Shown in pieces: positions 19,015 through 64,000 of a stretch of DNA of 64,000 bases (the first letter of the stretch is position 1; each line of letters begins with the position of its first letter). Below the pieces are notes generated by a model. That model made no database searches. It was not told where the DNA came from and saw only the letters and a list, made by a program, of their open reading frames with translations. The position numbers and the translations under genes were made by a program. The DNA is from Mytilus trossulus (Eukaryota), in the NCBI RefSeq assembly GCF_036588685.1, contig NC_086383.1, forward strand, positions 17,298,001 to 17,362,000, written 5' to 3'.

Positions 19015-19532
19015 GTAAGTTTGGGAATTAAATAAGAATTGCACTAGGCAAATACTGGCTTGAATTTGTAATTCACTTGGAACCAACAAAAAATTGCATT
19101 TTATGAATGTAGCAAAAGTTATATTTGCATGAAAAACAATTTATAAAAGAAAAAGTAGATTGCCGTTGTTCAAAAGTCATAAATCATTTGAGAGAAAACA
19201 AATCTTGGTTACAAACTAAAACTAAGGGTAACACATCAACTATTAGAGGAAAACATTGGAACAACAGAAACACTGACAAACTGTAGCCAAAACAAGAAAA
19301 TATAGCAAAACATAATGAATGCATGATAGTTAATGCTATTTTAAAAAGCATGTCCTAGTAGTACACAATTATCTATTTTATATGTAAAAACAAAAAAGAG
19401 ATCTTAAAATAAACGTATGTGTCAGATTCTCTTGAAGGGTAAGCATTATACTGCAGCTTAGAAAATTATATAGTTCATATAATCTGTAAATCGATACATA
19501 TTTATATTTATGTATTTTCTTTTTTTTTTCAG

Positions 19533-27320: not shown

Positions 27321-27519
27321 ATGAAATGTAGGTCTTTGAAGCAAATGTTTATGACAGAAAAAAAACTCTCACCTCTCTGCAAGCATACGACGTCCCCTAG
27401 CAATGACGAGTGGAATTATTTGCAGAAAAAATTCGGATATATATAGACTTTGTAAAATGTAACCCCGCCAAATTAAACTACTCTTTTAAGTTGTATGTAA
27501 AAAATATGTGGATGTATCG

Positions 27520-30500
27520 TTTAATCTAACTATTTTGAATGAATCAGGTCGTTAACATCTAATTATTATGAACGATCTTGTCATCAACATCTATTTATTA
27601 TGAACGCATCATGTCATCAACATCTAATTATTATGAAAACGATCATGTCATAAACATCTAACTATCATGAACGAATCATAACGTTAACATCTGACTATAA
27701 TGAATGAATCATGTCGTTAACATCTTATTATTATGAACGAATCGGGTCGTAAACATTTAATTATAATGAACGAATCGGGTCGTTTACATCTAATTATTAT
27801 GAACAAATCATGTTGTTAACATCGAACTATAATGAACAAATCGGGTCGTTAACATCTAATAATAATGAACAAATCGGGTCGTTAACATCTAATTATAATG
27901 AACGAATCGGATCGTTAACATCTAATAATAATTAACAAATCGGGTCGTTAACATCTAATTATAATAAACAAATCGGGTCGTTAACATCTAATAATATTGA
28001 ACAAATTGGGTCGTTTACATCTAATTATAATGAACGGATCATGTCGTTAACATCTAATTATTATGAACGAATCGGGTCGTAAATTATAACATCTAATTAT
28101 AATGAACGAATCGGGTCGTTAACATCTAATTATAATGAATGAATCGGGTCGTTAACATCTAATTATAATGAACGAATCGGGTCGTTAACATCTAATTATA
28201 ATGAACAAATCGGGTCGTTTACATCTAATTATAATAAACAAATCGGGTTGTTAACATCTAATTATAATAAACAAATCGGGTCGTTTACATCTAATTATAA
28301 TGAACGGATCATGTCGTTAACATCTAATTAAAATGAACGAATCGGGTCGTTAACATCTAATTATGATAAACAAATCGGGTCGTTTACATCTAATTATAAT
28401 AAACAAATCGGCTCGTTAACATCTAATTATAATAAACAAATCGGGTCGTTTACATCTAATTATAATGAACAAATCGGGTCGTTTACATCTAATTATAATA
28501 AACAAATCGGCTCGTTAACATCTAATTATAATAAACAAATCGGGTCGTTAACATCTAATTATAATGAACGAATCGGGTCGTTAACATCTAATTATAATGA
28601 AAGAATCGGGTCGTTAACATCTAATTATAATAAACAAAATCGGGTCGTTTACATCTTATTATAATGAACGAATCGGGTCGTTAACATCTAATTATAATAA
28701 ACAAATCGGATCGTTAACATCTAATTATAATGAATGAATCGGGTCGTTTACATCTAATTATAATGAACGAATCGGGTCGTTAACATCTAATTATAATAAA
28801 CAAATCGGGTCGTTAACATCTAATTATAATAAACAAATCGGGTCGTTAACATCTAATAATAATGAACAAATCGGGTCGTTTACATCAAATATAATGAACG
28901 GATCATGTCGTTAACATCTAATTATTATGAACGAATCGGGTCGTAAAATATAACATCTAATTATAATGAACGAATCGGGTCGTTAACATCTAATTATAAT
29001 GAATGAATCGGGTCGTTAACATCTAATTATAATGAACGAATCGGGTCGTTAACATCTAATTATAATAAACAAATCGGGTCGTTTACATCTAATTATAATG
29101 AACAAATCGGGTCGTTTACATCTAATTATAATGAACGAATCGGGTCGTTAACATCTAATTAATGAACGAATCGGGTCGTTTACATCGAACTATAATGAAC
29201 GAATCGGGTCGTTAACATCTCATTTTAATGAACAAATCGGGTCGTTTACATCTACTTATTATGAAAAAATCATGTTGTTAACATCTAATATTTGTGAACG
29301 AATCGGGTCGTAAACATCGAACTATAATGAACGATTCGGGTTGTTAACATCTAATTATAATGAACGAATCGGCTCGTTAACATCTAATTATAATGAACAA
29401 TTCGGGTCGTTTACATCTAATTAATATGAACAAATCATGCTGTTAACATGTAATATTTGTGAACGAATCAGGTCGTTAACATCGAACTATATGAACGAAT
29501 CGGGTCGTTAACATCTAATTATAATGAAAGAATCGGGTCGTTAACATCTGATTATAATGAACGGATCATGTCGTTAACATCTAATTATTCTGAACGAATC
29601 GGGTCGTTAACATCTAATTATAATGAACGAATCGGGTCCTTAACATTTAATTACTGTTAACATCTAATTATTATGATCGAATCAATTTTAACGAACGAAT
29701 CGGGTCGTTAACATATATTTATTATGAACGGATCATCTTATATTTATGAACGAATCGGGTCGTTAACATATAATTATAATGAACGAGTCTGGTCGTTAAC
29801 ATCTAACGATACTGAATGAATCATGTCGTTAACTAAGCATCTTATTATTATGAACGAATCATTTCAGGTATATCTTATTGTTCTAAGGGCATACGATACA
29901 GTTACAGGGGAGGTAATGACGTTGCTAACGTAAAATGTTATTTTCGCGACGTCAAACTGTGACATATCGGGAAACGATGCCTTTTTCGACTGATTTTTAT
30001 CATTCAAACTGATTTAATTTGAAAACGAGTTCATGGACCCCTGTTTTTCAAAACAGCAATTTGTTTCATTTTGCAGGGAGATTATGTGACACAAATTTTA
30101 TAAACTGTAAATATAGGATTTTTTTTTAATGTTGATAAACATGCAGCAAAAAATGACGTATTTTCCTCAATTCATGAACATTTGATAAATATGAGTTATT
30201 TCTGAATCAAAAAATGGATATTTTTTCAGGGTGCTTATAAAATACAGAAATTACCGATTATTTAACAAAAAACAATTTGTGTTTATCTTTTATAACAAAA
30301 AAGTTATGTCTTTCTCTCGAAAAGAAATTATGGCCACAAATCTGAATTTTGAGCAATTTTACAAAATTTCGACCTCATTTTACTCAAAAAGTAGCACATG
30401 AAGGTATATTTTTTATAACATATTTGATTTAATCAGGTAAAAAATAGACTATATGCAAATTTTCACGAACTTGTAAATACAGGATCAAAACTGTATCGTA

Positions 30501-30620
30501 TGCCCTTACATCTAATTATGATGAACGAATCATTTTTTTAACATCTAATTATGATGAACGAAGCATTTTTAACATCTAATTATGATGAACGAATCATGTC
30601 GTTAACTTTTAATTATCATG
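27520..30620. repeat. 33-bp minisatellite/satellite array (~70 units), interrupted by a MITE
   Basis: Consensus AACATCTAATTATAATGAACGAATCGGGTCGTT; homogeneous centre, degenerate edges; resumes after 30508. Confidence 0.97.
29887..30505 (+). mobile_element. Kolobok-like non-autonomous DNA transposon, copy 1
   Basis: TIR GGGCATACGATACAGTT / AACTGTATCGTATGCCC with CTAA...TTAC flanks; full-length inverse homologue at 55000-55604. Confidence 0.85.
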
Positions 30621-32020: not shown

Positions 32021-32814
32021 AGCTGATTGGACTCTAAATTTATCAAAAATTACCTCGACCAAAAAAGTTAACCTGAAGCGGGACAGACGGACAAACAGAC
32101 GAACGGACGAACAAACGAACGAACAGACGCACAGACCAGAAAACCTAATGCCCATAAAAGGGGCATAAAATACAAACACAAAAAAAATTAAAAAAATTAA
32201 AAAAAAAAAACATACAACGTAACCTAGATGAAAACATTATATCATTGTAACATAGAACAAAAAGGACAAAATGGAGGGAGGTTAGGAACCATTATAGTAT
32301 ACAACATTGAGTTTGTTGTAATATAACGACAGTATCGGAACTAGGGGACAAAGGCCGCCGCCCTGTTATAAAACTTTACGTATATTCTAGTTTATTGAAT
32401 GCGTATACTGCTTACAGGTATCACACTAAACGTTCCCGGCTTGACAGGTGCCCCCATCGCTTTATCAAAACCATGGTTCCGCACCAGTATGTAGCAATGG
32501 AGAGTACAACATTAAAGGATAATACTAAAGGTAATTTAGGGATATGTTATTGTGGTGATAATAAGACTAGGGACCATTATAGTAAAAAAAAACTTGGTTG
32601 ATTTTACATGAAAGAAGTTACACGGGGTGCTCATTTTCAAATTTCCGCTGTTGTACTTGTTTGACTTTATAACTATTTTGATCTGAGCGTCACTAATGAG
32701 GCTGCCGTATTCAATCATAATTCTGGAACCTTTGATAACTATTTTTAATGTTATCTCACAAACCTCTTTTTCTTTCTTTTTCCAAGATTACGTTTTCTTA
32801 TATTCTTTTTTATA

Positions 32815-33650
32815 ACCACCTCTATATCCCAAATACCCTTTTCTTACCCCTTATATATCACATGCCTACATTTTAAACCCTCTATCTCATATACCAACTT
32901 CTTACCCCTCATATATCTCATGCCCACTTTTTACCTCCTCTATCTCATATACCCACTATTTACCCCTCATCTCTCACAAGCAACTTTTTACCTCCTCTAT
33001 CTCATATACCTACTTCTTACCCCTCATAGCTCACAAGCAACTTTTTACCTCCTCTATCTCATATACCCACTTCTTATCCCTCATAGCTCACATGCCACTT
33101 TTTACCTCCTCTATCTCATTTACCCACTTCTTACCCCTCAAAGCTCACATGCCACTTTTTACCTCCTCTATCTCATATACCAACTTCTTACCCCCCATAG
33201 CTCACATGCCACTTTTTACCTTTTCTATCTTATATACCCACTTTTTACCCCTTATATCTCACATGCCCATTTTTACCTCCTCTATCTCACATACCCTATT
33301 CTTACCCCTTATATATCACATGCATACATTTTAAACCCTCTATCTCATATACCCACTTCTTACCCCTCATATCTCTCATGCCCACATTTTACCTCCTCTA
33401 TCTCATTTACCCACTTTTTACCCCTCATATCTTACATGCCCATTTTTTACCTCCTCTATCTCATATACCCACTTCTTACCCCTCATAGCTCACATGCCAC
33501 TTTTTACCTCCTCTATCTCATTTACCCACTTCTTACCCCGTATATCTCACGTGCCCACTTTTTACCTCCTCTATCTCATATACCCACTTCTTATCCCTTA
33601 TATCTCATGTACCCACTTTTTACCTCCTATATCTTACACCCCCCACTTCT
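32815..33650. repeat. 57-bp pyrimidine-rich minisatellite (~14 units)
   Basis: Unit ~TTTTTACCTCCTCTATCTCATATACCCACTTCTTACCCCTCATAGCTCACATGCCAC; produces the 19-aa-periodic spurious ORF 32920-33699. Confidence 0.93.
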
Positions 33651-33879
33651 TTTGCCACTAGATCCTGCTCCCCAGAATTGTGTCATCCCACTTGCCTGAA
33701 ATGAGGGTTTACTTAGACAGTCCACTTTTCACTATATAACTCATCGTTTTTTTAGTCAAACACAATCATTGATATAAAGTTTATATTCCCTAATGTCCAT
33801 TTCAGAGCATTACACATGGACCACTTTTGATATTGTATCGCAGTTTAACAAACAATCTTTTTAAAAGAGTTTTTTTCTC

Positions 33880-43862: not shown

Positions 43863-44440
43863 CCTAATGAGACCGGACGAGGATATTTTTCTCAATCTGC
43901 CACAGATTTAACGCACATATTGTAAATTGAAGTGCGGTTAAAAAAATAGATGGGAAAAACATATTCATTCTAACGTTCAAATTGAAATTTGAAAGGTTTG
44001 TAAATGATGTAGAAAAAAGGGGTGGTCAAATAGACGTCGAAAAGGTATTCTTTCTTTTATATACTATTTAACTTAGTGGCAAAAGATACCAGAGGATCGG
44101 TCGAACTCATTAACCGAAAACAAACTGACAACGCTATGGCTAAAAATGAAAAATACAAACAGACAAGTAATAGTGCACAAGAAACAACATAGAAAACTAA
44201 AGAATGAGAAACACGAACACCCCCAAAAATTGGTGGTGATCTCATATGCTCCGGAATGGTATACAGATTCGACTCCACATGTGGCACCCGTCGTGTTGCT
44301 AATGTTATTACAAACCCGATAATTAGTCTAATATTAAACTAATAGATAGTTGTTATATACTTTAAGAAGACAGATACAATAAAATATCATTGATGTTATT
44401 ATTTTTTAGATTTTACAGCTAATAATACTAAAACAAACAA

Positions 44441-45159
44441 ATGTCACGAAAGAGAGAAGATTCTTTACGCTTTTACGAATACTTGTGTCAGAAAATTGGT
44501 TCTGAAGAGGATGTTAAAGCTAGACGACTAACTTCTATTGTTTGTGATATGGGGAATGTATGTTTTAATCAATTCAGAAGTGGGAGTAACGGCGAAGGAC
44601 TACATTTAAAAGGTAGTGATATTGATGTCATGATAATAAATTGCCAGTGTGTAGTGTATGAAAGTTTTAGTGATATTCGTATTGAAAATAAGAAAAAAAA
44701 GTTCACTTTAGTGATGGACACAGAAGATACGCAGCCATGTTTTACTAAACTAAGAATTCTATGTAAATGTACCCCTACATGTATTTCTGATAAACTAGCA
44801 TACGATGACCACAAAGGTAGAGTGCTTTCCAGCAAAACGTTTAAAGAGATTCAACTTGATAACTGTTCCACAAAATTAAAACCTATTAACAAAATACATG
44901 GTCCATGTTTAACAGACGAATTGGGCCAAATAGATTTAGCGGTATGCCTCAAGTGTGATAAATGGATATCTCAATCAGAACAATGGATAAAAAGATCCCG
45001 TGGAAAATGGCCCACGTCTGATGTAATTTCAAAAATCATATCTTGTGGTGTTTTGTTTGTACCAGTAGGCATCAAAGAATCAATTAATGAACACATTGAA
45101 TGGAGAATGTCATATTCCGTAGCGGAAAAAATTCTAATATTTTCTTTCAATCATACACA
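44441..45159 (+). pseudogene. cGAS-like receptor (Mab-21/cGLR nucleotidyltransferase), 5' part, disrupted by LTR insertion
   Basis: NTase motif SGSNGEGLHLKGSDIDVM, third acidic residue in QIDLAVCL, Mab-21 motifs HGP, W..RSR..WP, GVLFVPVG and EWRMSYSVAEKILIFSFNHT. Confidence 0.92.
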
Positions 45160-45746
45160 TGTAGCAGTTAGGATTATTATGTCATAATTATTTCCCTTGT
45201 TTAAAACTATAAATTTCATATTTCTTAATTTGATGATTTAGATTAAGCTTATTCAGTACATATTTGTTAAATTGCATAGCTTTTGCTTTTTGAAATCATT
45301 AGTTAGAGATATTTATCTTAATTGTAAAGTTTAATATTTGCATCGTTGCAATTTCTCTGGATACCTTCTGCGAGAGATTTAAATATTTTATATAACTAGT
45401 TTTAGATTCTTATTTTGAATCCTCTGAGGACTGACATTCAGTCCAACCAAGGAAAGCCAGGCTTTCCAACCATCGATTACATTAGTGCATTTGCTACATG
45501 CCTCCTTAGTACTGTTAATTGAAGTCTTTTGAATGCTCCATTTCTACATATATTTGGCTTTACATGATAACAGTTGTACTTTGCAGATTAAATTATTTAT
45601 TGTTTTCAGTTTTTGGTTTTCATTTACTTAGATTTATTACAGCTCATCACTTTTGGACTCAGTCGTTTTCCGTACACATCAGTTTACAAACTAGAATTAG
45701 CTGTGGTCCGCATCCCCGAATCTTAGGCAGAATTATTCCGGCTACA
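45160..45746 (+). repeat. 5' LTR
   Basis: Direct repeat of 47861-48447 with 6 substitutions seen; TG...CA ends. Confidence 0.96.
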
Positions 45747-45954
45747 TTTGGTAGTGCGGGTGGGGTGTGGAATTCTAAAGCAGCTTTTCTGGTTTGTAAC
45801 TGAACTAAATTATACTAAGAAATGGAGTAGACATTTGAGTCAATACTTGTTGTAACTGAATATGACAGTCCTCAGCAGACCAGTTTTGAATAGTTATTTG
45901 TGGGGTATTTTATTTTCATAGTTTGGTTCATTTTGTAAATGTATATTTATAGTC

Positions 45955-46752
45955 ATGATTAGGTTTGAAGAAAAACCTTGTTTGTTTGATGGTATCAGCA
46001 TTGATATTACTGATTATTTTGTTCATTTTGAGACGGTTTCTCTATGGAATCAGTGGAATGAATTTGAGATGGCATGTCAGTTGATAATGAATCTGAGAGG
46101 TGATGCTCAAACTACTTTACGTTTCTTAGAAAGGCCACAGTTGTATGATTATGACTGCTTGAAAAATGTTCTTATTCAGAGGTTCAATCCCAAGGAGAGG
46201 GTGGCATATTTTAAATTTCAACTGCGAGTTTGCAGTTTAAAGGAAAATGAAACAATTTCTGAGTTTGGTCAGCGTTTTAAGATACTAGCTCATAAGGCTT
46301 ATCCTGATAATTTTTCCGATTTGGATTTGTATTTTACTGACTTATTTACATCATGTTTGAATATTGAGATGGCTAAATTTGTCACTTTTAAACACCCTCA
46401 TAGTTTAGATGAGGCTTTATCACTGGCTGTGGAATATGAAGCTGTTCATTTTTCTGGTGATCCTGAGATTACTGATAAGTTCGAAAGTTCAGTTTGTTGT
46501 AATAATGTTCACACAAGTTTTGAAATTTTAATTAATATATTGAGGAGGCGATTAAGATCACGAAGGAAACGTAAACCAAAGAGATGTTTTAAATGTCATC
46601 AGTTAGGTCATGTCAGGTCTAAGTGTTCCAACGCGTCTTCTATATGTCATTCTAGAGATTACAGGTCTGCAAATAGTCAAGCGAAGATCTCAGAAATAGG
46701 CGAGATGTTAAAGAATGATAATTGTAGTTCAGATTGTGTAACCTTTGTTTAA
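45955..46752 (+). CDS. gag: Gag protein (capsid-like region plus CCHC zinc knuckle)
   Basis: KP..FDG....DY..HFE.V...N.W motif, L..RF, Q/E..E.ISEF and the knuckle CFKCHQLGHVRSKC preceded by a basic tract; uninterrupted 265 aa. Confidence 0.9.
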   Translation: MIRFEEKPCLFDGISIDITDYFVHFETVSLWNQWNEFEMACQLIMNLRGDAQTTLRFLERPQLYDYDCLKNVLIQRFNPKERVAYFKFQLRVCSLKENETISEFGQRFKILAHKAYPDNFSDLDLYFTDLFTSCLNIEMAKFVTFKHPHSLDEALSLAVEYEAVHFSGDPEITDKFESSVCCNNVHTSFEILINILRRRLRSRRKRKPKRCFKCHQLGHVRSKCSNASSICHSRDYRSANSQAKISEIGEMLKNDNCSSDCVTFV

Positions 46753-47860
46753 TGTTTGTTTTTACATTGTGTTGTATATTTATAGTTTTACTTTATATTT
46801 ATTTCAAAGTACTCAGAGGTGTCACACGCCTCAATTTTGGCTGTTTGGTTTTCCTTTTTCAAAGGGAGGGATGTTGAACACCCCAACTTGTTTTATTTTT
46901 CATTTTCAATACTGGCTTGAATTATAATGGCTGATTTCCTGTGTAGTTTCAAGTGTAGACTGTTAGCTAGTTTTAGTAGGAATTGGTTTGTTTAAATGAG
47001 TTGTTGCTCGTTTGTCTGGATTGTAATCTCTAGCTAAATATTAAGTATTTAGGGAGTTTATGAGAGTCCGACTTTTTGACTTTTGTCATGGCAGAAACCA
47101 ATAGAGTGAAAGTTAAGCTTGAAGTTAGGAACACTTCTAGCTCATACAGATGGATCTAATCCATAATTTAGAACCTTGCAATTAAGATGGGCATCGTCCA
47201 TTTTATTTTGAGAATCTTGCTATAACATTTGGGCATCATCCAACTTTATTTTGAGAACCTTGCATATAGATGGACCCGATCCATCTCCGGTGGCACAAAG
47301 TCTGTGTTACCGTTATCAACAACGTTGGATTGCAGTAATAGGACCCGGTGGTACACGTCAAATGTGCCACTGTGATATCAACATTGGTGGACATTGCCTG
47401 GTATAACTTTTCATGATGGATTTAAACTGTTAGCTGTGCCGTTACCCTATATGCCGTACCACTGATTCTGAAGCCTACGTACCAAGAAGACCTCAAGTTG
47501 CGTCCCTTATTCTTTGAAACTGATGCCGATGTGTGTTTGTGTATACGTTAAACAGTGACATTTATTTAAAAGTGATAGTTTGACCCTTGCTTGAAAGACA
47601 TTTAATCTGATGTACATTAATTTCCAAATGTTATTCCATTTACATTTGTTTCCGAAGGGAGGAGGAGGGTATCAGACTGGTGTTGTGATCTCATTGAACA
47701 TTCTCGTGATTCGACTTTAAAAGATGAATATTTTGGATTTAATGTTTGATCCTGACATTTGGATTTTGCGTGCGTATTGATGCAGAAACATGAATATGAT
47801 AGACATTTCAGTTTGTAGACTTTATTAATGAAATTTATTGTTTGTCTTAGGGGGGAGGAA

Positions 47861-48447
47861 TGTAGCAGTTAGGATTATTATGTCATAATTATTTCCCTTG
47901 TTTAAAACTATAAATTTCATATTTCTTAATTTGATGATTTAGATTAAGCTTATTCAGTACATATTTGTTAAATTGCATAGCTTTTGCTTTTTGAAATCAT
48001 TAGTTAGAGATATTTATCTTAATTGTAAAGTTTAATATTTGCATCGTTGCAATCTCTCTGGATACCTTCTGCGAGAGATTTAAATATTTTATATAACTAG
48101 TTTTAGATTCTTATTTTGAATCCTCTGAGGACTGACATTCAGTCCAACCAAGGAAAGCCAGGCTTTCCAACCATCGATTACATTAGTGCATTTGCTACAT
48201 GCCTCCTTAGTACTGTTAATTGAAGTCTTTTGAATGCTCCATTTCTACATATATTTGGCTTTACATGATAACAGTTGTACTTTGCAGATTAAATTATTTA
48301 TTGTTTTCAGTTTTTGGTTTTCATTTACTTAGATTTATTACAGCTCTTCACTTTTGGCATCAGTCGTTTTCCGTACACATCAGTTTACAAACTAGAATTA
48401 GCTGTGGTCCGCATCCCCGAATCTTAGGCAGAATTGTTCCTGCTACA
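47861..48447 (+). repeat. 3' LTR
   Basis: Preceded by the polypurine tract AGGGGGGAGGAA; perfect terminal IR TGTAGCAG/CTGCTACA. Confidence 0.96.
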
Positions 48448-48451
48448 CACA

Positions 48452-49697
48452 ATTGCTTTGTTATGCGCTGTTAAAAATTTTCCTGAAAGAATTAATTGAC
48501 AATGACGAATGTCTGAAAGGTTTGCTTTGTTCGTATTTTATAAAAACACTCATGTTTTGGATCTTAGAAGAGTCCGACTCGTCAAAATGGAGACCGGATA
48601 ATATTATTTTGTGTTTTCAAGCATGTATACACAAACTATTGTACTGTGTAGACTATGAAATATTGTCACATTATTTTATTCCAGAAAAAAATTTGTTCCA
48701 CTTACGGTTCAATGGTATTAATAGGAACAAATTGTGCAATTTACTCAAAATTTCATATCAACAAGGAGAACAATGTTTGTTCTCTACTGCGACACTTAGA
48801 TTTTATCCAAACTGTTCATCTGAAATCAACCAATTTCTACGTCGTAATGCAAGATTGGTCAATGAGATCAGAAAAAGCTTTTCTTGTGGTTGGTATGCAG
48901 CGGAACAAAATAAACATTTGCTTTTGAACACATTGCTTCATTATTCTAGAAGTGGAATGTCTGCAGATATTTTTACTTTTTTTCTGTCACGTGCACATCA
49001 GATTATACCACAATGTTCAGACATTCCAAAGGGTCCAAACAAACAAAAATATGTCAAGTATAAAAGTATCATCAGTCATCTACTTATAGGTTTACATTCA
49101 GATGCAGTGACTGGGTGGATGATGTTGGCCTCTTTCTTTTATGAACGAACATATTACTGTACATCATTATTTATAATAAATCACGCTTTGATGAAGTGTA
49201 CAGACGAGAAAATTCAACTTGAGTCATTTCTTTCTGAGAGAATTCTGAACGTGGACCAGATATATGCATTGAATAAGATTGGAAACGAAAAGCTTATAAA
49301 ATCCTTGAAAACATTGACAACGAAAGATCTACTTTTTCCTACAAGATCCTTAATTATACCAATAGAACTACAACAGGATGTCCACGACCGAGAATTAGTT
49401 ATTCATCCTAAACCATTTGCACATTTCCTTGGGTTTCTATGTTGCTACCATTTGAAGGACGTTCTGTCAAGCGCTCATTTTTTGCGCCAGTTAATAGACC
49501 ATCATAACAGTTGTTGTATTAAAATGGAAGAAAACTCACTTTGTTTTTTGGATAATCTTATATGTATTGGCATAGCTTTCAAGATGCTAGGTTTAACAAA
49601 GAGGGCAAGATTTTGTTTCCAAGAAGTATCTTCGACTGATGAAGACAACTTAACAAGTGCAAATATACGACTGTCCGAATTAAATCTTCATGACTGA
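48452..49697 (+). pseudogene. cGAS-like receptor, 3' part (Mab-21 C-lobe plus helical/TPR-like tail)
   Basis: LLCYALLK...LCSYFIKTLMFW..EE...HYFIPEKNLF. Removing the element and one TSD copy restores FSFNHT-Q-LLCYALLK and an open 654-aa frame. Confidence 0.92.
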
Positions 49698-50456: not shown

Positions 50457-52860
50457 TTAAGTTCGTGCCATCCGAAAAATAATACTCCCACTATTTAAAA
50501 GCATTTAAAAACTGTATTGAACCAGTACATAAACACGAGATAATAAACATTTTAAAAAGAAATACCTTGATCAAATGTTTTAAGAGAAATACATTTTTGG
50601 AACTATATAGCCTTTGACAAGTGATGCCATTTTTTATAATTTTTTTAGGTTCTTTGTTACAATAAATGGAAGGTTAATTATATGTAGTAACTAAATGAGG
50701 GGTTATACCTTTGAGGAATGACTGTAATATTTTTTTCTGTCTATGGAGAAATAAAATAAAAAATTTGGTGCACACTAAAAAACGCGTGTAGCGGGTTATT
50801 TAACAGTGTGCTCCACATTTTTCGAATAGACAGGAAAATATTACAGTCATTTCTTATAATATTTCTAAATTCCAATTTTAACCGTAGAAAACCATGAAAA
50901 AACATTGATGACGTCACGGTCACATGCCTAAATTATGTCTATGGGCTGATAACAAAATAACGTCAGCCAATCAGAAGACGCGTAAAATCCAAAATTAAAG
51001 TACATGTATTTGTATTTAGGCAACAACAGTTTACCGATGTTCAAATACCATGAAATATTAAGAAGACATAAATCAAGGTTTAAAAAAATATAAAACTGAT
51101 GGGTTTACATGAACTGCAAAAAAGCGAGATTTGGTTATTCTTGCTATGCATGCATTACAAGATATGCGAATACACACGTAGTTAAAACTGTCTCAATTGG
51201 AACAGAACAAAACTTGTAATTGACGACTTTTCTGAGATCAAACGATGTGAAATTACAATTACTTGTCGCCAGTGAGTTGAGACACACACATGTCGTATCG
51301 TCAACCTGTTGGGGATGGTGACTGAAACATGTACGAAGTGTAGGTTTTATCTGTGTCCCTACACATCTCTGTTGAGGCAGCTTTTGTTTAAGGAGTACAA
51401 CCCAAGTAATAACGTCCGAATGAACGAGTATAACATATTGAGTAAGTTATGTGAACGTTATACGATGGGAAAGATAACTTCTAAGAACTTGAAAGGTGAC
51501 AGTTTGAAAGTTCAAATTCTCACGGATTAGATTCTTTTTTATAGTCGAGAATCGTTGTTCAAATCGAAGAAACAAAAAGGATAAAAATCAGGCCTTCTAG
51601 TTTTAGTAGTATTCATAATTTCAAACGTACTGAGATGTTGGTTATTGAGTGATATCTGAAAGCGTAATTCAATAATTTAAGAATTTGCAAGATATGTTTG
51701 CATCTATATTTTATATGTCCGTCTATCATGTTAACATACGCTGTAATTGGATATGAAATTGTTGAAATCCCCTCTTTTGTAGTCCAAAATTATTTGTTAT
51801 TGATATTTTCCCCAGTAGGAAGCTCCTGCAGTCTTCCTATAATACCGGTATTATTTTCTTACTTTTATTGTAAGATATAATATATTATATATTTTTAAGT
51901 TAATTTAAATGTAATTTGCGAGAACGAAAAAAACAATTATAATCAGACATTTGACAAAAATAAATGTTTTATACTATTTACTGCAGGCTCATTTCGTCCT
52001 TCAATTGTTTATATATTATACTTTGACCTCATGTTACACATTTATGTGTCTGAGCGTTATCAATAAATCTTGAAAATCTTGAATCTATTTACGACAGTGC
52101 CCGCGACAGTGACATGAGTATAGAAAGAGAAATCTATTCCAAGCATGCGCGCGATACATTTAGGCTGAAAATATCAAAATAAAACAAAATAATGATTATA
52201 AAAGTTTCTTTTACCTCATCAATCAGTTTAAATTTTTACTCTTGGTTTGAAACAAGAAAACGTGTCATTAGTGAGCTAGTATTTCGAGGTAAATGGATGT
52301 GTTAAGTATGATTTACAGGTTTGTATTTTCAAAAGTATAAATTTAATTTCTATTTTGTTTTTGGTAAATTTATAAAGCACATTCTGTTAGATTTGTGAAC
52401 CTTCAGACAAAAAAGGGGTTCACTTTCGTAAATCGGTTAACTGTTGAATAATCACTTTAATAATGGATTTTAACTATAGTCTAAATTCACCTCAAACTTA
52501 GATGGTTCGATTTCATCTACACATGATAGATAAGGAAGAAGGAACATATTAAAAAAAAATTGTGTGTATTTTCACTTATAAAATCAAAATATTACAAGCT
52601 AGATCGTTGCTGTTGCTTTAAGTCAACTTATAAATGTTTCTTGTATAAAGAGGAAGAATTTTAAAACTGAGCTTTCAAGTAAGTTTTTTTTATGTTTATG
52701 GAATTATCAATTCATTTGTTTTTTATCAAGAGTTCATAACTTTGTGCCATCATAATTTGTTGCTTTGTGCATATTCGTAGAATACATAATATCATACAAT
52801 TGTTTATGTGTAATTGACAAAAAAATATTATCGTGATATATTGAGTGTTATTTCTGATAA

Positions 52861-53065
52861 ACTCATCATAGATACCATGATTACGTTTTGTATTTACGCA
52901 AGACGCGCGTTTCGTCTACAAAAGATTCATCAGTGACGCTCGAATACAAAAAAGTTTAAGGGGCCAATTAAAGTACGAAGTTGAAGAGCATTGAGGACAA
53001 AAATTCCCAAAAGTCGTCCAAATGCAGCTTAGGTTTTCTATTCCTTAGGTAGAAAAGCCTTAGTA
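52861..53065 (-). mobile_element. Partial retrozyme-like copy with hammerhead at 52896-52939
   Basis: Minus strand GCGUCA-CUGAUGA-AUCU-uuugu-AGAC-GAAA-CGCGCG-UC-UUGCGU; flank AAGTTGAAGAGCATTGA shared with 38909. Confidence 0.7.
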
Positions 53066-54999
53066 GTAGTATTATCGATCCTCATGCCCCAAAAATATAT
53101 TCCTTTGTTGTCTTAAGTAGGTGTGAAGTGTCTCTTTTGTTTTTTTTGGGGTGTCTAATTTTTTTTTGGGGGTGTATAAATTTCTTTTGTTTTTTTTTTA
53201 TTTTTTTATTTTTTTTTGGGGTGTATAAAATTTCTTTTGTTTTTTTATTATGTAAGTTTGGGGTGTATAAAATGTCTTTGTGTTTTTTCTTCATTGGGTT
53301 TGGAGTGTTGAAAAAATCCTTTTGTTATTTTCTTGAATAGATTTGTGGTTTATAATTTAAACAGTCTTCCTTTGTTGTTTTGAATTTGTAGTCATAAATA
53401 TTGGGGGCTATAAAGTTCCTTTGTTATGTACTTAAGTAGGTTTAAATGATCCAACTGTTAAATTATAAAAATAAGTGGAGGGGCGGTGTCAATACCCTTT
53501 ATATAATTCATTGATACTCGTAAAATGTCAAATGTAAATTCGAAAGATATTAAGAAGGTGAGAAAAAACGTAAGAATAGTCATAACAAAATAAGAAGAAA
53601 AAAAGAAAGAAAAAGAAAAAAGTGCAATGTGATTTTTCTTTCCTCACTTTGTTATTCTTGTTTTTTATACTTTGAAGACTCCCTTTCTTACCGATGACAA
53701 AATTAAAGAAATCCATCCCATGATAGTCTGGGGGTTTGCGTTCCAAGAAGAAAGAAAAGGTCATTGGATGATTTGTGCCATTGATGCCCATCGTTTTAGA
53801 CGGCGTGTTCAGATGGCAGATGTCTTTTGTTGGGGGTTATAACTTTTATGAATAGATTTGAGACGTCATAGATATACTGACAGGTTTGATCCTCATGATA
53901 TAAAGATACTCTTATACTGATGGAAAATGTCTTTGTTTAGGGGTTATACTGTTTTTCTACTTTTTATCAATATATTAGAGACCTCATACTTTAGATGTTT
54001 GAACACCAGTTGGGGTGAAATCGATTATTGTCAAATTAATTTGGGTTCATAAATATTGGATTAAATAAGATACCTGTACTTATTGGTTTTAAATTTATTC
54101 GCGTGTGTTTTTCTTCTTCTTTAAACAGATTAAGGCATGGAAATGTTTACTATATAGAAATCAGTCGTTCGTCAGTTTTTTAATCTATGCTATTGATGTG
54201 GCGGAATAGAAGTTCCTTCATAATAAATGTTCCAAACGGAAACAATATTTGGAAAAATTATTTACACTGGAATAAATATTACAGTAAATGTTCCTAACGG
54301 AAAAAATGGTATAGAATATTTGTTCCAGTGGAACCTCTGTTACGCGGAACAAATATACGTTGACAATGGAAAGCCGTAAAATGTCAAACGTACTTTCAAA
54401 AGAAAAGAGGGTGAGTAGCGTTTAAAAAAATATTAACAAATTGAAAAAGTTTTTTAACCCTTAACACTGTTATGGTTTTCATGGTATAGAATAGGGGAAG
54501 GGGAGGGGTTCTACTTTTTTAAGTTTGGCTCACGACTCATTTTAGGTTATGTTATTTGGTGTTTTAATGCAAGATATATACATGAAGCATAAACCATAGT
54601 AATATTCGTCGATATATTTTATTGAAATTACAAGGGTATGCTGTAATTAAACCCCCATCCGTCCATAGTGCTACTAAAACGTTAAAATATAGAATGTTCA
54701 GAGTTTATGGAATAACATATGACTGTCTGTTTCCGATTTTTTTAAGATAAACTACCTCTTTCTGGTATTTTTTTATTACACTATTGAAAAAGAAATAAGT
54801 TACTTCTGTAACATCCTTCAATGTCTAAATTTTTGTATGTTTACACATTTTAATCTGTATATAGCATGTTCATATCATACTTCCATCTTTTACCCGAGAA
54901 ACAACAATGAATAAGCTAAAACATAAATAAAATAAAAACATAACAGATAATAATGCAAATGAATGAGAAAAACCTCCACAGTCTGTAATTGTTTCTTAA

Positions 55000-55604
55000 G
55001 GTCATACGATACAGTTTGATCCCATATTTACAAGTTGATGAAAATTTACATATAGGCTATTTTTTAACTGATTAAATCAAATATGTAATAAAAAGTATAC
55101 CTTCATGTGCTACTTTTTGAGTTAAATGAGGTAGAAATTTTGAATATTTGCTCAAAATTCGGATTCGTGGCCGTATTTTCCTTTTCGAAAGAAGGACATA
55201 ACCTTTTTGTTTTAAAAGATAAACACAAATTTTTTTTTGTGAAATAATTTGTAATTTCTGTATTTTATAAGTATTCTAAAAAATTATGCATTTTTTATTC
55301 AGAAATGGCTCATATTTATCAAATGGTTATGAATTGAGAAAAAACGTAATGTTTTGCTGTATATTTATCCAAATTAAAAAAAATGCACTATTAACAGTTT
55401 TATAAAATTTGGTCCACATAATCTACCTGCAAAATGAATGAAAATGTCGTTTTAAAAAATAGGGGTCCATGCACTCGTTTTCAAATGAAATCAGTTTGAA
55501 TGATAAAAATCAGTCGAAAAATGCACCTTTTCCCGATAAGTCACAGTTAATAACATTTTACGTTAGTAACGTCATTATCTCCCCTGTAACTGTATCGTAT
55601 GCCC
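55000..55604 (-). mobile_element. Kolobok-like non-autonomous DNA transposon, copy 2
   Basis: TTAA|GGTCATACGATACAGTT ... AACTGTATCGTATGCCC|TTAA. A TTAA TSD with RR..YY termini fits the Kolobok superfamily. Confidence 0.88.
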
Positions 55605-58600
55605 TTAAAACGAAGTATACCACTTTACACTAATAAAGTATATCCATTGAAATCAGGGTGGTTGCGTTCGAACATTTTTCACTGTAGGAGGGGGTTTCGT
55701 GTAAAATGTTTGAATACTTTGTTTCATTTATGACTGATGTTAGGGAGACCAGCATTAAATATACTACAATTAACTGTTGAATCATTTTAAGTTTTACGCA
55801 AATTAAACGGCTACATATACAACAATGAGAAACAAAAATATCGCCTACCTTCTACTTAGTTAATCAAAAAATATATACTAGTATAAGAAAGAAGTACACA
55901 AAACAAACCCACAATTTGTGTCCTGTTTTTATTTTTGTTTTATAACCTTTTATAACATGTAAAAATATTGTAAAGTAAGTTTGCACAGTTGTAAGGCCTA
56001 TAATGAGGACTGAAATATAATACTTCTTCCCATGTCTAACTCTCAGTAAATCAATCAATGCTGATTTATATTGAATATTATATACAAGTTGCGCTCGATG
56101 TTGATACTAGTGAGCGTAAAAAGACGTTCCTTATTATAATGCGATTTTGACGATTTCAAATAAAGTTTCAAGCGTTCAACCTTATATTTGATGAGCTCAA
56201 TGAACTGTTTTGAATTCGGTTATCACGATTTCGGTTTGTCGAAAAATGCATTGTTTTTACAAATCAAACTCAAATTGCTCGTACATGTTGTTTTTTAATT
56301 GAATGTTTCTTTACATGAGTTGTCAGTCTTGGACCATTATGGCAAATTTTCCGTTTGCCACCAGATCGCATCAGGATTTTTGTTTTTTAATATCATTTAG
56401 ATATTGTATTTATATTCCCTACTTTTTTTGCATATACATGTATATACTCATTTCGCCGAATTTCTTACAGTTTCCTTTCATTTTTATGTATTATCATTGC
56501 CCGATGTCGCAAAAGATCTAGGTAGTTTTTTAAATTTATTTGGGAATCATATTTTAATCATTTTCAGTACTTTTTTACCATAATGCATGTCCTTTGTTTG
56601 TTATTGTTTGCCGGTAATAGTTTTCCTCTTTCTTTTATTTCAAGTTTACGATGATATTATATATTTTTTCTTTTGACGATTTGAAAACCTGCAGATCGAC
56701 AACGTTCCTTAAGTAAAACAAATGTACTAAAAAAACTATGATCCCAATAATTATTAATCGCATTTGATCAACATTTGAATTTTAACTTAAACTTTTCTTT
56801 ATATTATAGATTATACTTCTTTATTTTTATTCGAGTAAACCTGGAAACAAATAACTATCATGATATATATCTAAAAACCAAAGCATGACTTCAAATACGT
56901 TTTGCAGACGTTGTGACACAACTTCTTCACTTTTTGAAACGATATAAAAATCTTGTTGTCTATCGAAAAACGTTATACACTATTTTGTTTCTCTGTTACA
57001 AGATGGCTATACTTTTTGAAGTCATTGCAATAGAAACTATACTCATGTTTCAGGCAAAAATATATCATGAACCAGAAATAAAGCTAATGCACTTTTAAAT
57101 GTATAAATAATTTTCCTCTCAGCTTTTCCAAATTCTTGATATGAATGCGCAAACCCGCTATATGCTTATTTTCGAATGCTTGGACATTTTTCAGATCGTT
57201 TTCAAACATGATATTTTCCGGTTCACGGTTTCAGTGATATTGATTTTGCTTTAACATGCAAATAACTATAACAATAGCAATATTCTTGTGAAGTTTTACG
57301 ATGATCGGAGAAAATATGCGATACGAACGACACAGAACTCTGAACCTCTGCACACAAAATGTAACGTTTGACATTGCGGTTTTGCATAAAAATGGAAATA
57401 ATTAAGTTTTAAAATTTTTGGTATTCTAAATTTCGTTTCCTTTTTTTTTTTATTTTCAAGTCTATTAAACTCAATTCAACCAGATATCACTATTTTGTCA
57501 ACGAACTGTCCAGTCTACGTATTTATTTTTTATGATAATCTATAGCAAAATGGATTCGTACCAACATTGTGCGCAACGTCAGAACATTTGTATTTTTTCT
57601 TCTTTCCTCCTTTCAACTAAAGATTTCTACCCTACATCTTCATACATGTTTTCAGTCCTTGTAAAAATTGGCAAACCAGTTACTTTTTATCAGCTTTAAC
57701 CTGTAAACCTTCTAATTTATAAGAATATATATATATCTTATGCCAAAATTATCCCATACCTCACTTGCATATTTAAAAAATTGGTCTAATAAGGGTTTAT
57801 TCAAATTTTCCGTAGTCAATATGCTATCAATGCAATAGTCTTTTGCATTTTTAAAATAAACAATATCTTTCTATATGAATATTGTGGTCAATGAACCTCT
57901 CTAGTATTTTGAAGTAAATATTAAATGAATATCAAAAAGGGAATCTATTATAGCTAACAAACAGATTTTGATGTCATTTTAGTTGTTTCTAGGCAATTTA
58001 TTCAATGAGAAAATAATAAACTAAGGTAAACTTAGGTTGCATATAGATACACTTACTCGTTGATTTTGATTGAACACTTTCTGTCTGGTAAGCTAGATTA
58101 TAAATTACACACATCGATACTACACAGTAGGTATAATGTCCGGTTGGTATATGAGTTTTGTTTTAAAGACTAAATTAGGTTTTGGTATTGTTGAGTTGGA
58201 CGAAAACTTTTAATCGAATGTGGTATATTAACGATTACAAGATTCAAAGGAAATGCGTTCATGAAATATGTATATCCTTGCATTATCGCACACTTAATTT
58301 TGAATTCCGGGTATTTATAGAACGGTCCCGGGTTTTTTTGTGTGTAATGTTCATGTCTTATTTCTCATCGTTAGGTTGATTTTCTAGGCACTTTATACAT
58401 ATTCTAATGCCTACTATTTCTTAATCATAAGAAATCCGATGGACAAGGTATAATTTGCTCTTGTCACTACACACAGACACACACATACATATATATTTAT
58501 TTACAGTGATGGTATGCTTCTAGAAATATATTAGCATCTTGTAATTATACTGAAGAGATGAGTAGATGATCATTTCTGTACACTAATAAGAATACTTCGT

Positions 58601-58668
58601 GTATTGTACCAGAGATCCTTATTAAATTCCTACAAGAAGGTAACACCTCCCGAAACGAAAGCTTATGT

Positions 58669-61600
58669 AATATAAGCTAGAGTTAGAGGAGGGGATAAGG
58701 TCTCTGCGCAATGCTAGGTGGTCTTGTCGTAGAAGTTAGAAATAAAAAGTACAGGTTCCAGCCCCGGCGCCGGGGAGGAAGTTACGAATCAAATCTACTC
58801 TAACATCGTTAGGTTGATTTTCTAGGCACTTTTTTTAAATATATATTTTTTTTTCTGGAACGAAAAAATGTATTTCAAGGACCAAATAATAACTTTGCAA
58901 TGTAGTATTTCAATTACTATCGTTTACAGTTTTGTATCGATTTTCCAGTTGAAACAAAATATCAGTACAAAATACTGCAAAGAAAAAAGACATTATAAAC
59001 TAAGACTATATGCCATGTGCTTAGCAAGGATTTGATTCGTTTCATAAGTATTCTTACAATTTATTTTTTATTGTAGCATCGGTGGCTCATCGCCTAAATG
59101 AATCAGCTGGAGAGAGAGGTTTTAAATTTAATTTCCTCTGTCAGTCGATGCAATTAATTTCCTATCTCAAATGTAAATCTTATACTTTAATTATAGATTA
59201 AATTGAGATCTATTGATACATTGTCGTACGAAAAAAAGAAAAGATACAAAAAATAGGAAAGCATTAAGCACATTTGCAAAATGTTTAATTTAAACAACTT
59301 TTGATAAGCTTTATTTCCGCATTTAATCCAACAAAAATCGTTCATTATTACAGTTTGTTCTATATGAATATGATTTTTGTTTTACAGACAAATATTTTTA
59401 TCTATCATTCACTTAAAAAGAAAAAAACTGCACACATGTTACTATTTTGAAGAGAAATTTTATATAGCATATCGATTCGAAGTTGTCAAAGCATTGTTAA
59501 CAATGGTTAAAGACCATGGTTTATTTATTTCCCCATTTTAAAGACAACTTGAACATGTAACACACATTGTAAATTTAATTTACACATTTGTAATGACAAT
59601 AACAACGAGTGAATACAATACTTTCCTCTAAATGTCAAATTATTAGTTAATCAATCAATTTTATTGGATTTTACGACTTTTTATAAACCAGTGTATAGTT
59701 CGATGTTTCATTTATATATTTAAGCAGATTGTAATGTTAACAGTTTTGAAGGGAAGTGGTATTGTAGTTTTTGTTAAAAATAGATTGCGAGAGACACATG
59801 GTTTGATTGTTGAGCCGTTCATGTAACGTTTTAGAATTAAGTCCTGTAGTTTGTTTGTGGAGAGATTGAAGAAAGATCGGATTGAAATTAGTTATCGAGT
59901 TGCGTGACAAAATTGAATGAAAACAAGACTGAATTAAAACAAAATATTATCATTATCACTACCTTTAATTGTCCATTTTTTTCCCTTAAGGTTTACGAAC
60001 ATATCACTCTTTTAATTACAAATTTAACCATTGCTTAAATTTTTTTCTCTTAAAAACTTGTATGATATTGTTGTTTTAGAACTAAATAAAACTTGATCCC
60101 TCTATACTTATAAACGCTATTAGAAAGCGAATAATAATAAATATTTGGTAAGATCAGGAATAAGTACACATACACCATGTACACGGTATTTTTTTTTTTA
60201 TCTTATTTTGGCCTAAGGTACCACTGCACTTGAAAAAAATGTATTTGGTATAATAATGAAAAATGTATGCTTGGCAAAACAAGCAAATTTCCTCCAAATG
60301 CAGTATTGTACCAATGACGAAAGACATTTAACACACACATTTCACTAGAATAAGGGAACGGACTTACACCAAAAAAGGGGTTATAGACATTAATTGTGTA
60401 GTTAAATTTTCGAATCGTATACAATTGTGTAAGAACGGAATAAAATAGATGCTTCCACGACGATGGATGAAATAAGCTAAGCGTTACAAAGCAACGAAGA
60501 GATACCTATAGACGGCAGTTTTTCTGTTATGGTCGGGCAAATAGACATTTCATGGGGCAGGGGAGACACATATCACAAAGTTATTTGGTGGGGGAACACA
60601 GGTAAACTTCGTAAACGTTATCTAGTATCAGTAGACTTAGTGAAACTATGTACATCATAGCAAGCCTATCTCAATATAGGTTTGATTCAAGAAAAACCTG
60701 TCGCACCGTATCGTCTGGTCAATGGTAGGCACTTACCTCAGATGACAAGGGTATATGGTAGATAAAGTTCTGAATCATTGGACAGTCCCGCAGTGTTTTT
60801 TCGAACATGGAATAGAGAAATGTAGAATTTTGCCAATATTGGCAACAGTAGTATACCGATGGTCACACGTCTTTGTGAATTAGCCGACGTAAGTGACAAG
60901 AAACTGTGTAGAATCAATGAAAAAAAAAAAACATTTTGAAAAGGTGGTAGACTTGTAAATTGTTAGTCATTTCATCAAAATTAGGAAACACATTCATTTG
61001 TATAGGTGAGAATGAAACATGTAAAGAAATGTTTTTTTTTCTTTACTCAATTGAAACGGAGGGGTATGTACATATTTCTGCCATAGTGAGTTTAACGGGA
61101 TTCTTTTCTTGTAACTTTTTCTGAACAAACGGTCTTAAACAATACAATAACAAAGATAAACATTCTTATGTAGACTTTATTATAACAGGCAGTACTTTGT
61201 CTTGTCGTGCGTTAAATAGAACGTGCAGATCCCTCGAATGCTTTAAAAGGTACACAAAGGAAACGAAAACAAAGAAAATACTTTTTTACACAGAGGGGAG
61301 GCCGGCGTCCGCCGCCCCGCGCGAAAAAAGTGTATAAAAAAACTGAGCGCGGGGCGGCGGACGCCGGCCTCCCCTCTGTGTAAAAAAGTATTTTCTTTGT
61401 TTTCATTTCCTTTGTGTACCTTTTAAAGCATTCGAGGGATCTGCACGTTCTATTTAACGCACGACAAGACAAAGTACTGCCTGTTATAATAAAGTCTACA
61501 TAAGAATGTTTATCTTTGTTATTGTATTGTTTAAGACCGTTTGTTCAGAAAAAGTTACAAGAAAAGAATCCCGTTAAACTCACTATGGCAGAAATATGTA

Positions 61601-64000
61601 CATACCCCTCCGTTTCAATTGAGTAAAGAAAAAAAAACATTTCTTTACATGTTTCATTCTCACCTATACAAATGAATGTGTTTCCTAATTTTGATGAAAT
61701 GACTAACAATTTACAAGTCTACCACCTTTTCAAAATGTTTTTTTTTTTTCATTGATTCTACACAGTTTCTTGTCACTTACGTCGGCTAATTCACAAAGAC
61801 GTGTGACCATCGGTATACTACTGTTGCCAATATTGGCAAAATTCTACATTTCTCTATTCCATGTTCGAAAAAACACTGCGGGACTGTCCAATGATTCAGA
61901 ACTTTATCTACCATATACCCTTGTCATCTGAGGTAAGTGCCTACCATTGACCAGACGATACGGTGCGACAGGTTTTTCTTGAATCAAACCTATATTGAGA
62001 TAGGCTTGCTATGATGTACATAGTTTCACTAAGTCTACTGATACTAGATAACGTTTACGAAGTTTACCTGTGTTCCCCCACCAAATAACTTTGTGATATG
62101 TGTCTCCCCTGCCCCATGAAATGTCTATTTGCCCGACCATAACAGAAAAACTGCCGTCTATAGGTATCTCTTCGTTGCTTTGTAACGCTTAGCTTATTTC
62201 ATCCATCGTCGTGGAAGCATCTATTTTATTCCGTTCTTACACAATTGTATACGATTCGAAAATTTAACTACACAATTAATGTCTATAACCCCTTTTTTGG
62301 TGTAAGTCCGTTCCCTTATTCTAGTGAAATGTGTGTGTTAAATGTCTTTCGTCATTGGTACAATACTGCATTTGGAGGAAATTTGCTTGTTTTGCCAAGC
62401 ATACATTTTTCATTATTATACCAAATACATTTTTTTCAAGTGCAGTGGTACCTTAGGCCAAAATAAGATAAAAAAAAAAATACCGTGTACATGGTGTATG
62501 TGTACTTATTCCTGATCTTACCAAATATTTATTATTATTCGCTTTCTAATAGCGTTTATAAGTATAGAGGGATCAAGTTTTATTTAGTTCTAAAACAACA
62601 ATATCATACAAGTTTTTAAGAGAAAAAAATTTAAGCAATGGTTAAATTTGTAATTAAAAGAGTGATATGTTCGTAAACCTTAAGGGAAAAAAATGGACAA
62701 TTAAAGGTAGTGATAATGATAATATTTTGTTTTAATTCAGTCTTGTTTTCATTCAATTTTGTCACGCAACTCGATAACTAATTTCAATCCGATCTTTCTT
62801 CAATCTCTCCACAAACAAACTACAGGACTTAATTCTAAAACGTTACATGAACGGCTCAACAATCAAACCATGTGTCTCTCGCAATCTATTTTTAACAAAA
62901 ACTACAATACCACTTCCCTTCAAAACTGTTAACATTACAATCTGCTTAAATATATAAATGAAACATCGAACTATACACTGGTTTATAAAAAGTCGTAAAA
63001 TCCAATAAAATTGATTGATTAACTAATAATTTGACATTTAGAGGAAAGTATTGTATTCACTCGTTGTTATTGTCATTACAAATGTGTAAATTAAATTTAC
63101 AATGTGTGTTACATGTTCAAGTTGTCTTTAAAATGGGGAAATAAATAAACCATGGTCTTTAACCATTGTTAACAATGCTTTGACAACTTCGAATCGATAT
63201 GCTATATAAAATTTCTCTTCAAAATAGTAACATGTGTGCAGTTTTTTTCTTTTTAAGTGAATGATAGATAAAAATATTTGTCTGTAAAACAAAAATCATA
63301 TTCATATAGAACAAACTGTAATAATGAACGATTTTTGTTGGATTAAATGCGGAAATAAAGCTTATCAAAAGTTGTTTAAATTAAACATTTTGCAAATGTG
63401 CTTAATGCTTTCCTATTTTTTGTATCTTTTCTTTTTTTCGTACGACAATGTATCAATAGATCTCAATTTAATCTATAATTAAAGTATAAGATTTACATTT
63501 GAGATAGGAAATTAATTGCATCGACTGACAGAGGAAATTAAATTTAAAACCTCTCTCTCCAGCTGATTCATTTAGGCGATGAGCCACCGATGCTACAATA
63601 AAAAATAAATTGTAAGAATACTTATGAAACGAATCAAATCCTTGCTAAGCACATGCCATATAGTCTTAGTTTATAATGTCTTTTTTCTTTGCAGTATTTT
63701 GTACTGATATTTTGTTTCAACTGGAAAATCGATACAAAACTGTAAACGATAGTAATTGAAATACTACATTGCAAAGTTATTATTTGGTCCTTGAAATACA
63801 TTTTTTCGTTCCAGAAAAAAAAATATATATTTAAAAAAAGTGCCTAGAAAATCAACCTAACGATGTTAGAGTAGATTTGATTCGTAACTTCCTCCCCGGC
63901 GCCGGGGCTGGAACCTGTACTTTTTATTTCTAACTTCTACGACAAGACCACCTAGCATTGCGCAGAGACCTTATCCCCTCCTCTAACTCTAGCTTATATT
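58669..64000. repeat. Giant near-perfect palindrome (arms >=2654 bp, 24-nt spacer 61323-61346), runs off the window
   Basis: Position x pairs with 122669-x at the apex and at the window edge (no net indel); mirrored ORFs 60203-60424(-) and 62245-62466(+); mismatches seen at 59013/63656 and 61264/61405. Confidence 0.97.

Follow-up and report, generated by a model that had tools for sequence, protein, structure and literature searches.

The window, a 64,000-nt stretch of the 1.3-Gb Mytilus trossulus genome (G000:C11:17298001-17362000), ends inside a very large palindrome, here interpreted as one copy of a gene-less element that is probably a non-autonomous derivative of the Polinton/Maverick transposons. 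Along the best fold axis (i+j = 122669), 2656 of 2666 positions are paired, compared to just 36% for the runner-up axis. Two of the unpaired positions are the only arm mismatches within the window (59013/63656 and 61264/61405), and the remaining eight are the loop. The visible arms run from 58669 to 61322 and from 61347 to 64000, 2654 nt each with 24 nt between them; fold axis and arm comparison agree here with a preliminary description of this DNA, which gave the same arm length, mismatch count and spacer. It also had the right arm leaving the window, and the next stretch (L010) indeed mirrors 53065-58668 at 99.9% identity, with one substitution and four gap columns. The whole copy measures 16,542 bp, from 53065 to G000:C11:17367606 (window-equivalent 69606, i.e., counted onward from the window), with its right end 5606 bases beyond the window. 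It is about three times the size of the part first described, and consists of two 8.26 kb arms around the 24-nt loop (Table 1).

Table 1. Features of the palindromic element in the window (positions are those of the window).
Feature	Position	Strand	Size or remarks
Palindromic element, probable non-autonomous Polinton/Maverick derivative	53065..64000, onward to window-equivalent 69606	.	16,542 bp
Left target-site duplication, CTTAGT	53059..53064	+	right copy L010:5607-5612, directly past the element's far end
Left terminus, (AGT)2 end motif	53065..53073	+	motif as given for Mavericks in PMC8097293
Left arm	53065..61322	+	8258 bp
Subterminal mosaic, pieces of both ends of a related Polinton clade	53498..54453	+	62-85% identity
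PP1c-binding (GADD34-like) small-frame remnant	53652-53830		within mosaic; 15.6 bits in arm
Host dispersed repeat, both arms	54997..55611	.	~615 bp; at least 30 other places at 82-91%, mostly 88-91%
Older host dispersed repeat, both arms	56088..57582	.	~1.5 kb; many pieces elsewhere, mostly 66-86%
Host-derived segment	57618..58846	.	88.7% to C13:1670731-1671925; about 89-94%
High-copy host repeat	58351-58846		~500 bp; inside the 57618..58846 segment
Broken 5' remnant of polymerase frame	60274..61294	+	toward apex, stops where GC stem starts; upstream of Pfam polymerase domain
GC stem left of loop	61295..61322	+	28 bp, 26/28 G or C (93% GC)
Unpaired A-rich loop	61323..61346	.	24 nt (C8 copies 25 nt); contigs of runs X1, X2, X11
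Right arm, in-window part	61347..64000	-	mirror of 61322 to 58669

A genome search with the terminal 661 bp found eight termini in four pairs: those of the window copy (C11) and of copies at C8:29282341-29297607 (C8a), C8:33470077-33493417 (C8b) and C1:99976612-100002429 (C1). All eight termini start with AGTAGT, and all four copies are bordered by an exact 6-bp target-site duplication, different in each case (CTTAGT, GAGATA, AAAATA, and AATGCT); the chance of any one such match is ~5e-4. Two of the four, C8b and C1, each cross a 100-N gap with overlapping contigs and are mis-joined there, a caution for assemblies generally; with the overlap counted once they are ~17.1 and ~14.8 kb long, and C8a is 15.3 kb. 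The copies are 2.5-4.5 substitutions per kb apart. C11 was inserted within a host repeat, paralogues of which retain the empty site elsewhere: five alignments at four distinct host copies join both flanks with a single copy of the target, at offsets of -5 (three places) and -4 (one place). One host copy joins both flanks of C8b in the same way; no informative empty-site paralogue of C8a or C1 was among the fetched loci, leaving the test positive for two of the four insertions. Polinton ends and footprint, no coding capacity, and several recent copies are together what is expected of a non-autonomous derivative. The preliminary description had proposed searching the next stretch for an outer boundary, terminal inverted repeat or target-site duplication, and the genome for further copies of arm and apex; (AGT)2 ends, the 6-bp duplication and three more copies are the outcome. 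Of the origins it listed, a large fold-back mobile element was right in kind. A very recent inverted duplication is contradicted by four dispersed copies with the same ends and four different 6-bp duplications, and by the C11 empty site.

The palindrome is also represented in independent data. At least half of the words sampled from 60300-62300 are present in 17 of 24 listed public runs, which span four organism labels plus mollusc, food and gill metagenomes; over 52700-61400, all 30 bins are covered in four runs, one per organism label. In run X11 one contig crosses the whole loop, with flanks of 33 and 84 bases, and runs X1 and X2 each have an 84-base loop contig with 30 stem bases per side, one short of the bridging rule. 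These runs carry three organism labels (X1, possibly the source sample, is not taken as an independent run). No loose ends or joints at the apex were reported, and on neither side of the stem did a branch leave the arm. Two copies are asymmetric: 1431 bp are missing from C1 beside the apex, on one side only, with a 4-base microhomology at the deletion, and one arm of C8a lacks 1241 bp. As to transcription, no transcript was seen; the 0.08-0.11 of the sampled words contained in three RNA or possibly-RNA runs is uninformative.

No intact gene was found in the arm, where the longest ATG frame is 87 aa, and none of the 22 scanned of 64 stop-to-stop frames of at least 45 aa gave a Pfam match above cut-off; the sub-threshold matches (RdRP_4, S1_2, DUF3043) are attributed to chance. 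The intact protein-primed polymerase of an autonomous Polinton is absent, in that none of the 97 PF03175 matches in the genome falls inside the element (91 of 123 candidates scored). Frames of at least 70 aa from 56 fetched loci yielded no match to integrase, ATPase, protease or capsid in the arm. “Non-coding,” the term used in the preliminary description, is therefore correct as to intact genes, but the arm does carry decayed Polinton genes. Matches of 69-75% DNA identity tie it to a Polinton clade with members at C8:59.20 Mb, C4:67.15 Mb, C65:2.39 Mb and other loci, in the 5' region of the polymerase and in the subterminal regions of both ends, and by this measure it is of Polinton ancestry. 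The C8 clade member encodes an integrase plus chromodomain and, in two frames, DNA_pol_B_2, with sub-threshold protease and A32-type ATPase matches; no capsid protein was named in it by Pfam. Within the polymerase remnant, 60431-61294 is 69% identical to the polymerase 5' part of the clade over 894 columns (E 4e-128), corresponding to residues 254-538 of a 1084-aa frame in which the DNA_pol_B_2 match starts at 728. The remnant is interrupted by stops and frame changes, and its end at 61294 directly adjoins the GC stem. With up to three mismatches allowed, the stem has nine matches in the genome, all within the four copies, and none in the control; none was found in the viral and metagenome contigs searched. 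A likeness of the loop to the sequence that comes next in the Polinton polymerase was too weak to use, and five Rfam miRNA-hairpin matches at the apex were rejected as generic hairpins, all far below gathering score.

Host DNA makes up much of the rest of the arm. Its three host-derived segments, which differ in divergence, come to ~3.3 kb per arm, or about 40%. Another copy of the ~615-bp repeat is found in the window at 29880-30508. Beside a copy of the 500-bp repeat elsewhere (L108, G000:C10:21462001-21472000) there are nested inverted repeats of 270-580 bp at 95-98% identity. Short G-rich subterminal repeats (family D13) lie at 53133-53300; they have the word GTGTATAAA in common with the apex loop, which could be a protein-binding site or chance.

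Variants are shared between the two arms within each copy. Eight of 11 arm pieces were compared, the three omitted ones duplicating others across gaps, and substitutions only were counted, leaving aside 53130-53230, 55225-55230 and 58785-58795 as low-complexity or edge sequence. Between copies the arms differ by 19-29 substitutions; within copies they differ by 3 (C11), 14 (C8a), 0 (C8b), and 1 (C1). Thirty-nine copy-specific substitutions stand in both arms of their copy (9 in C11, 6 in C8a, 11 in C8b, and 13 in C1), as against 18 private to one arm. Indels follow the same pattern: a 127-bp deletion is in every C1 arm piece and a 250-bp duplication in every C8b arm piece, neither in any other copy, and shared indels extend to within ~100 bp of the termini. 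The three host-derived insertions are likewise mirrored, where a host repeat would be expected to enter a single arm. Because copy-specific changes, indels and host repeats stand in both arms, the family as a whole must keep becoming symmetrical. The 39 shared against 18 private changes are as expected if one arm serves as template for both, as in a snap-back replicon; conversion after insertion would fit them too.

Polintons are well represented in this genome. The protein-primed polymerase (PF03175) has its 97 matches here and none in any of 14 control genomes. Among 12 polymerase-bearing elements whose ends were read, nine start with AGTAG and 10 have an exact 6-bp duplication (of the others, one was entered one base too wide and one matches at 5/6). 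These host Polintons are 9.0-22.9 kb long, with inverted repeats of 90-1500 bp. Other end motifs (ACAC-, ACTACT-type) occur beside the AGT type, in the Polintons at C11:10691803-10707599, C1:42389145-42411373 and C7:33759180-33776785, the first of which is one of a group for which about 20 loci with polymerase frames of 1253 aa are listed. The clade of the Polinton at C8:59.20 Mb carries a small PP1c-binding frame (L054:5679-5909 in that Polinton; 27 bits, cut-off 26.1) that reads like a second exon and that we take to be comparable to GADD34/ICP34.5. It is followed by a CARD plus PC4 fusion (L054:5954-6826), and both are possible counter-defence genes. In vertebrate Mavericks, no introns were seen (PMC8097293).

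The ends, the duplications, the four copies, the Polinton ancestry, and the sharing of variants between the arms of a copy are demonstrated; the steps that produced them are a model. The preferred explanation, to which we assign a probability of roughly 0.7, is that this is a gene-less, fully palindromic Polinton derivative, probably copied and inserted by the polymerase and integrase of an intact helper Polinton, whose arms are likely remade from one arm at the apex. Under this model, an ancestral Polinton end would have been copied as far as the 5' portion of the polymerase gene, where fold-back gave an origin-arm-loop-arm-origin molecule. A helper polymerase would initiate at an (AGT)2 end, displacing a strand; the end repeat serves jumping-back initiation in Mavericks according to PMC8097293. 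At the 28-bp GC stem the new strand might turn back to serve as its own template; alternatively, a half with a hairpin cap might be copied round the loop. The product would then be inserted by a helper integrase, leaving the 6-bp footprint. In the chromosome the arms would diverge through private changes, deletions and insertions of host repeats, and the following round would spread the state of one arm to both. One arm must be the template for both, because any differences between the arms would survive if a snapped-back strand were simply copied round the loop. Symmetry could be restored if the new strand folds back at the GC stem, if a hairpin-capped half is copied, or if the heteroduplex of a snapped-back strand is repaired; we propose that large indels would be best handled by the first two of these. 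The integrated hairpin-ended replicon suggested in the preliminary description comes close to this likely mechanism.

Several results weigh against this model. No free hairpin or linear form was observed (the data are contigs only). The search for a helper with matching ends was negative: at most the first 8 bases are shared by the 12 elements read, a subset of the polymerase loci, and searches by terminus DNA, PF03175 and related 5' polymerase protein turned up nothing matching beyond these, although a helper may lie outside the assembly. A 17-mer end pattern gave two extra matches, compared to two in the control, and the loci of the extra ones (on C9 and C10), once fetched, contain no Polinton. 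The nearest clade is only ~70% identical, and its polymerase frames are split in the members read. C8a has the most arm-private changes and also bears the 1241-bp one-arm deletion. The gaps crossed by C8b and C1 mean that assembly could inflate their arm identity, and with one assembly only, copying at birth and later conversion are inseparable. At the apex, where the preliminary description had proposed examining reads, the loop-to-arm depth is 0.34 in X1 and 0.22 in X2 rather than the 0.5 expected if all loops are intact, and in run X6 the arm was seen and a loop contig was not, which does not show absence. Hairpin dropout may be the cause of the low loop depth. Contig depths were not taken as copy numbers.

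The main rival accepts a non-autonomous Polinton derivative, but one in which gene conversion between the arms, or cruciform repair, homogenizes them in the chromosome once the element is inserted, independently of how it replicates, with the GC stem and spacer hindering cruciform extrusion. We consider this unlikely, though it is the alternative to be taken most seriously. The copy-specific changes per arm are alike in the four copies, at about 10-14 (shared plus half of private), so that their similar change load can be read as simultaneous insertion of all four; C8a is the least homogenized, and its 1241-bp arm difference could have blocked pairing; and spacers do reduce the fragility of palindromes (PMC7999016). 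Very long conversion tracts would be needed, however, since the shared changes span the arm to ~100 bp from its ends and include the 250-bp duplication, the 127-bp deletion and kilobase host insertions. Moreover, C1 is asymmetric by 1431 bp at the apex and yet has a single private substitution, and C8a retains its six shared substitutions alongside 14 private ones.

It is quite improbable that the element is real and the near-identity of arms within a copy arises in part from an assembler using the reads of one arm twice. C8b and C1, the copies split by gaps, are indeed those with arm differences of 0 and 1, but the gapless C11 and C8a, with 3 and 14 private changes, still hold 9 and 6 shared ones, and every arm joins its own unique flank.

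Still harder to sustain is a cut-and-paste transposon, of the classical foldback type or another, that captured Polinton debris and is mobilized by a non-Polinton transposase. Foldback elements typically have very long inverted repeats and take up host DNA, and the G-rich subterminal repeats would suit one. Foldback and Mutator-like or P-like elements have 8-11-bp target duplications and tandem-repeat arms, while here the duplication is 6 bp and self-comparison of the arm reveals only short internal repeats. The (AGT)2 ends and 6-bp duplications agree with the Polintons of this same genome, Polinton-derived sequence lies both near the terminus and near the apex, and cut-and-paste alone gives no copy-specific variants shared by the arms. 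Least likely of all are a fold-back read artefact, which the preliminary description had kept in view, and a single inverted duplication of local origin. Long-read data are known to contain artefactual palindromes, and two copies are mis-joined at gaps, but four loci with common ends and distinct target duplications, empty-site copies, the apex in independent short-read contigs, and asymmetric deletions such as that at the C1 apex refute both.

A tentative extension of the helper-copied model, which we think less likely than not, is that the element is a heritable defective-interfering satellite of Polinton viruses, a hairpin replicon with the GC-rich stem as dedicated turnaround signal, host repeats as padding up to the size of a helper genome, packaging in helper capsids, and spread between individuals and related species. 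The element is ~9.9 kb without its host repeats and 14.8-17.1 kb with them; the size argument for packaging consists of the latter range in four copies set against the 9.0-22.9 kb of host elements, and of nothing else. If the extension holds, the arms would directly record strand-displacement and fold-back replication by a Polinton polymerase in an animal germ line.

Around the element, the window contains a Mab-21/cGAS-like gene (Pfam Mab-21, Mab-21_C) at 44432-49697, interrupted by a 3-kb element that has identical direct repeats at 45159-45458 and 47860-48159 and a retrotransposon gag frame at 45922-46752. Paralogues follow in L010 (window-equivalent 70666-72673) and L011 (78633-80638), and the palindrome sits inside this tandem cluster. 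Further upstream are a multi-exon C2H2 zinc-finger gene at 10977-21623, which we take to resemble hunchback, and tandem arrays of 33-bp and 29/57-bp units at 27477-29900 and 32808-33672.

To our knowledge, nobody has observed Polinton replication in animals, and ideas of it draw on the analogy with adenovirus and phage phi29. In an element consisting wholly of terminal repeat, with variants shared copy by copy, this replication model becomes testable from sequence: arm differences could date each insertion, as those of LTR pairs do, and shared variants trace template use. The family also demonstrates that an animal genome can retain a near-perfect 16-kb palindrome with a 24-nt spacer and that such a palindrome can spread there, one of the copies having an asymmetric central deletion.

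Among known systems, Polintons/Mavericks themselves (PMC8097293, PMC6431247) come closest. Vertebrate Mavericks have (AGT)2//(ACT)2 ends, 6-bp duplications, and a length of ~17 kb with 10% spread, according to PMC8097293; the M. trossulus element has such ends, the exact 6-bp duplication and a size near that mean, and is homologous to the Polinton polymerase frame and subterminal regions. It differs in lacking any intact gene, in an inverted repeat that is 99.9% of the element as against 90-1500 bp in the host's Polintons, and in arms that are about 40% host-derived. It is thus excluded from the autonomous Polintons, and fits a non-autonomous derivative apart from the missing partner. Polinton-1N1_DR, a zebrafish non-autonomous family named in PMC9341505, is likewise gene-poor and presumed to move in trans; the comparison is by name only, and a palindromic structure in that family would bear directly on novelty. 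No palindromic Polinton derivative was found in the published literature at the level of titles and abstract beginnings, a scope that does not take in the founding Polinton paper or Repbase.

Protein-primed replicons offer the nearest parallels for the palindrome. Kikuchi reportedly described, in 1985 (cited in PMC4443254), hairpin plasmids that derive from yeast pGKL1, together with palindromic dimers of them; they are protein-primed replicons reduced to one origin arm plus a hairpin and maintained by a helper. Here too one origin arm is mirrored round a short loop, as in a snap-back replicon, but the plasmids are cytoplasmic, not integrated, and without an integrase footprint, and are not known to spread as a family through chromosomes. 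The palindromic mini-replicons of phage phi29, said to have been obtained through strand switching by Esteban in 1997, are also defective replicons generated by a strand-displacing protein-primed polymerase. These are short, made in vitro, and transient, whereas the present element is 16.5 kb, inherited, and old enough to have gathered host repeats of several ages. Strand switching by phi29 is treated in PMC5910420, and competition of short defective replicons with their parent in PMC5910420 and PMC11494085.

The large palindrome of Tetrahymena rDNA is an example of fold-back priming, and it shares with the element a short inverted repeat and a small spacer at its center. It differs in its origin, fold-back priming of this kind acting at a chromosome break or in programmed amplification, while the M. 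trossulus element is bounded by transposon ends and mobile between loci. Other systems provide established cases of fold-back priming at short inverted repeats (PMC7999016); what is seen directly here, in a Polinton setting, is a polymerase remnant running into the fold point and a GC stem unique to the family.

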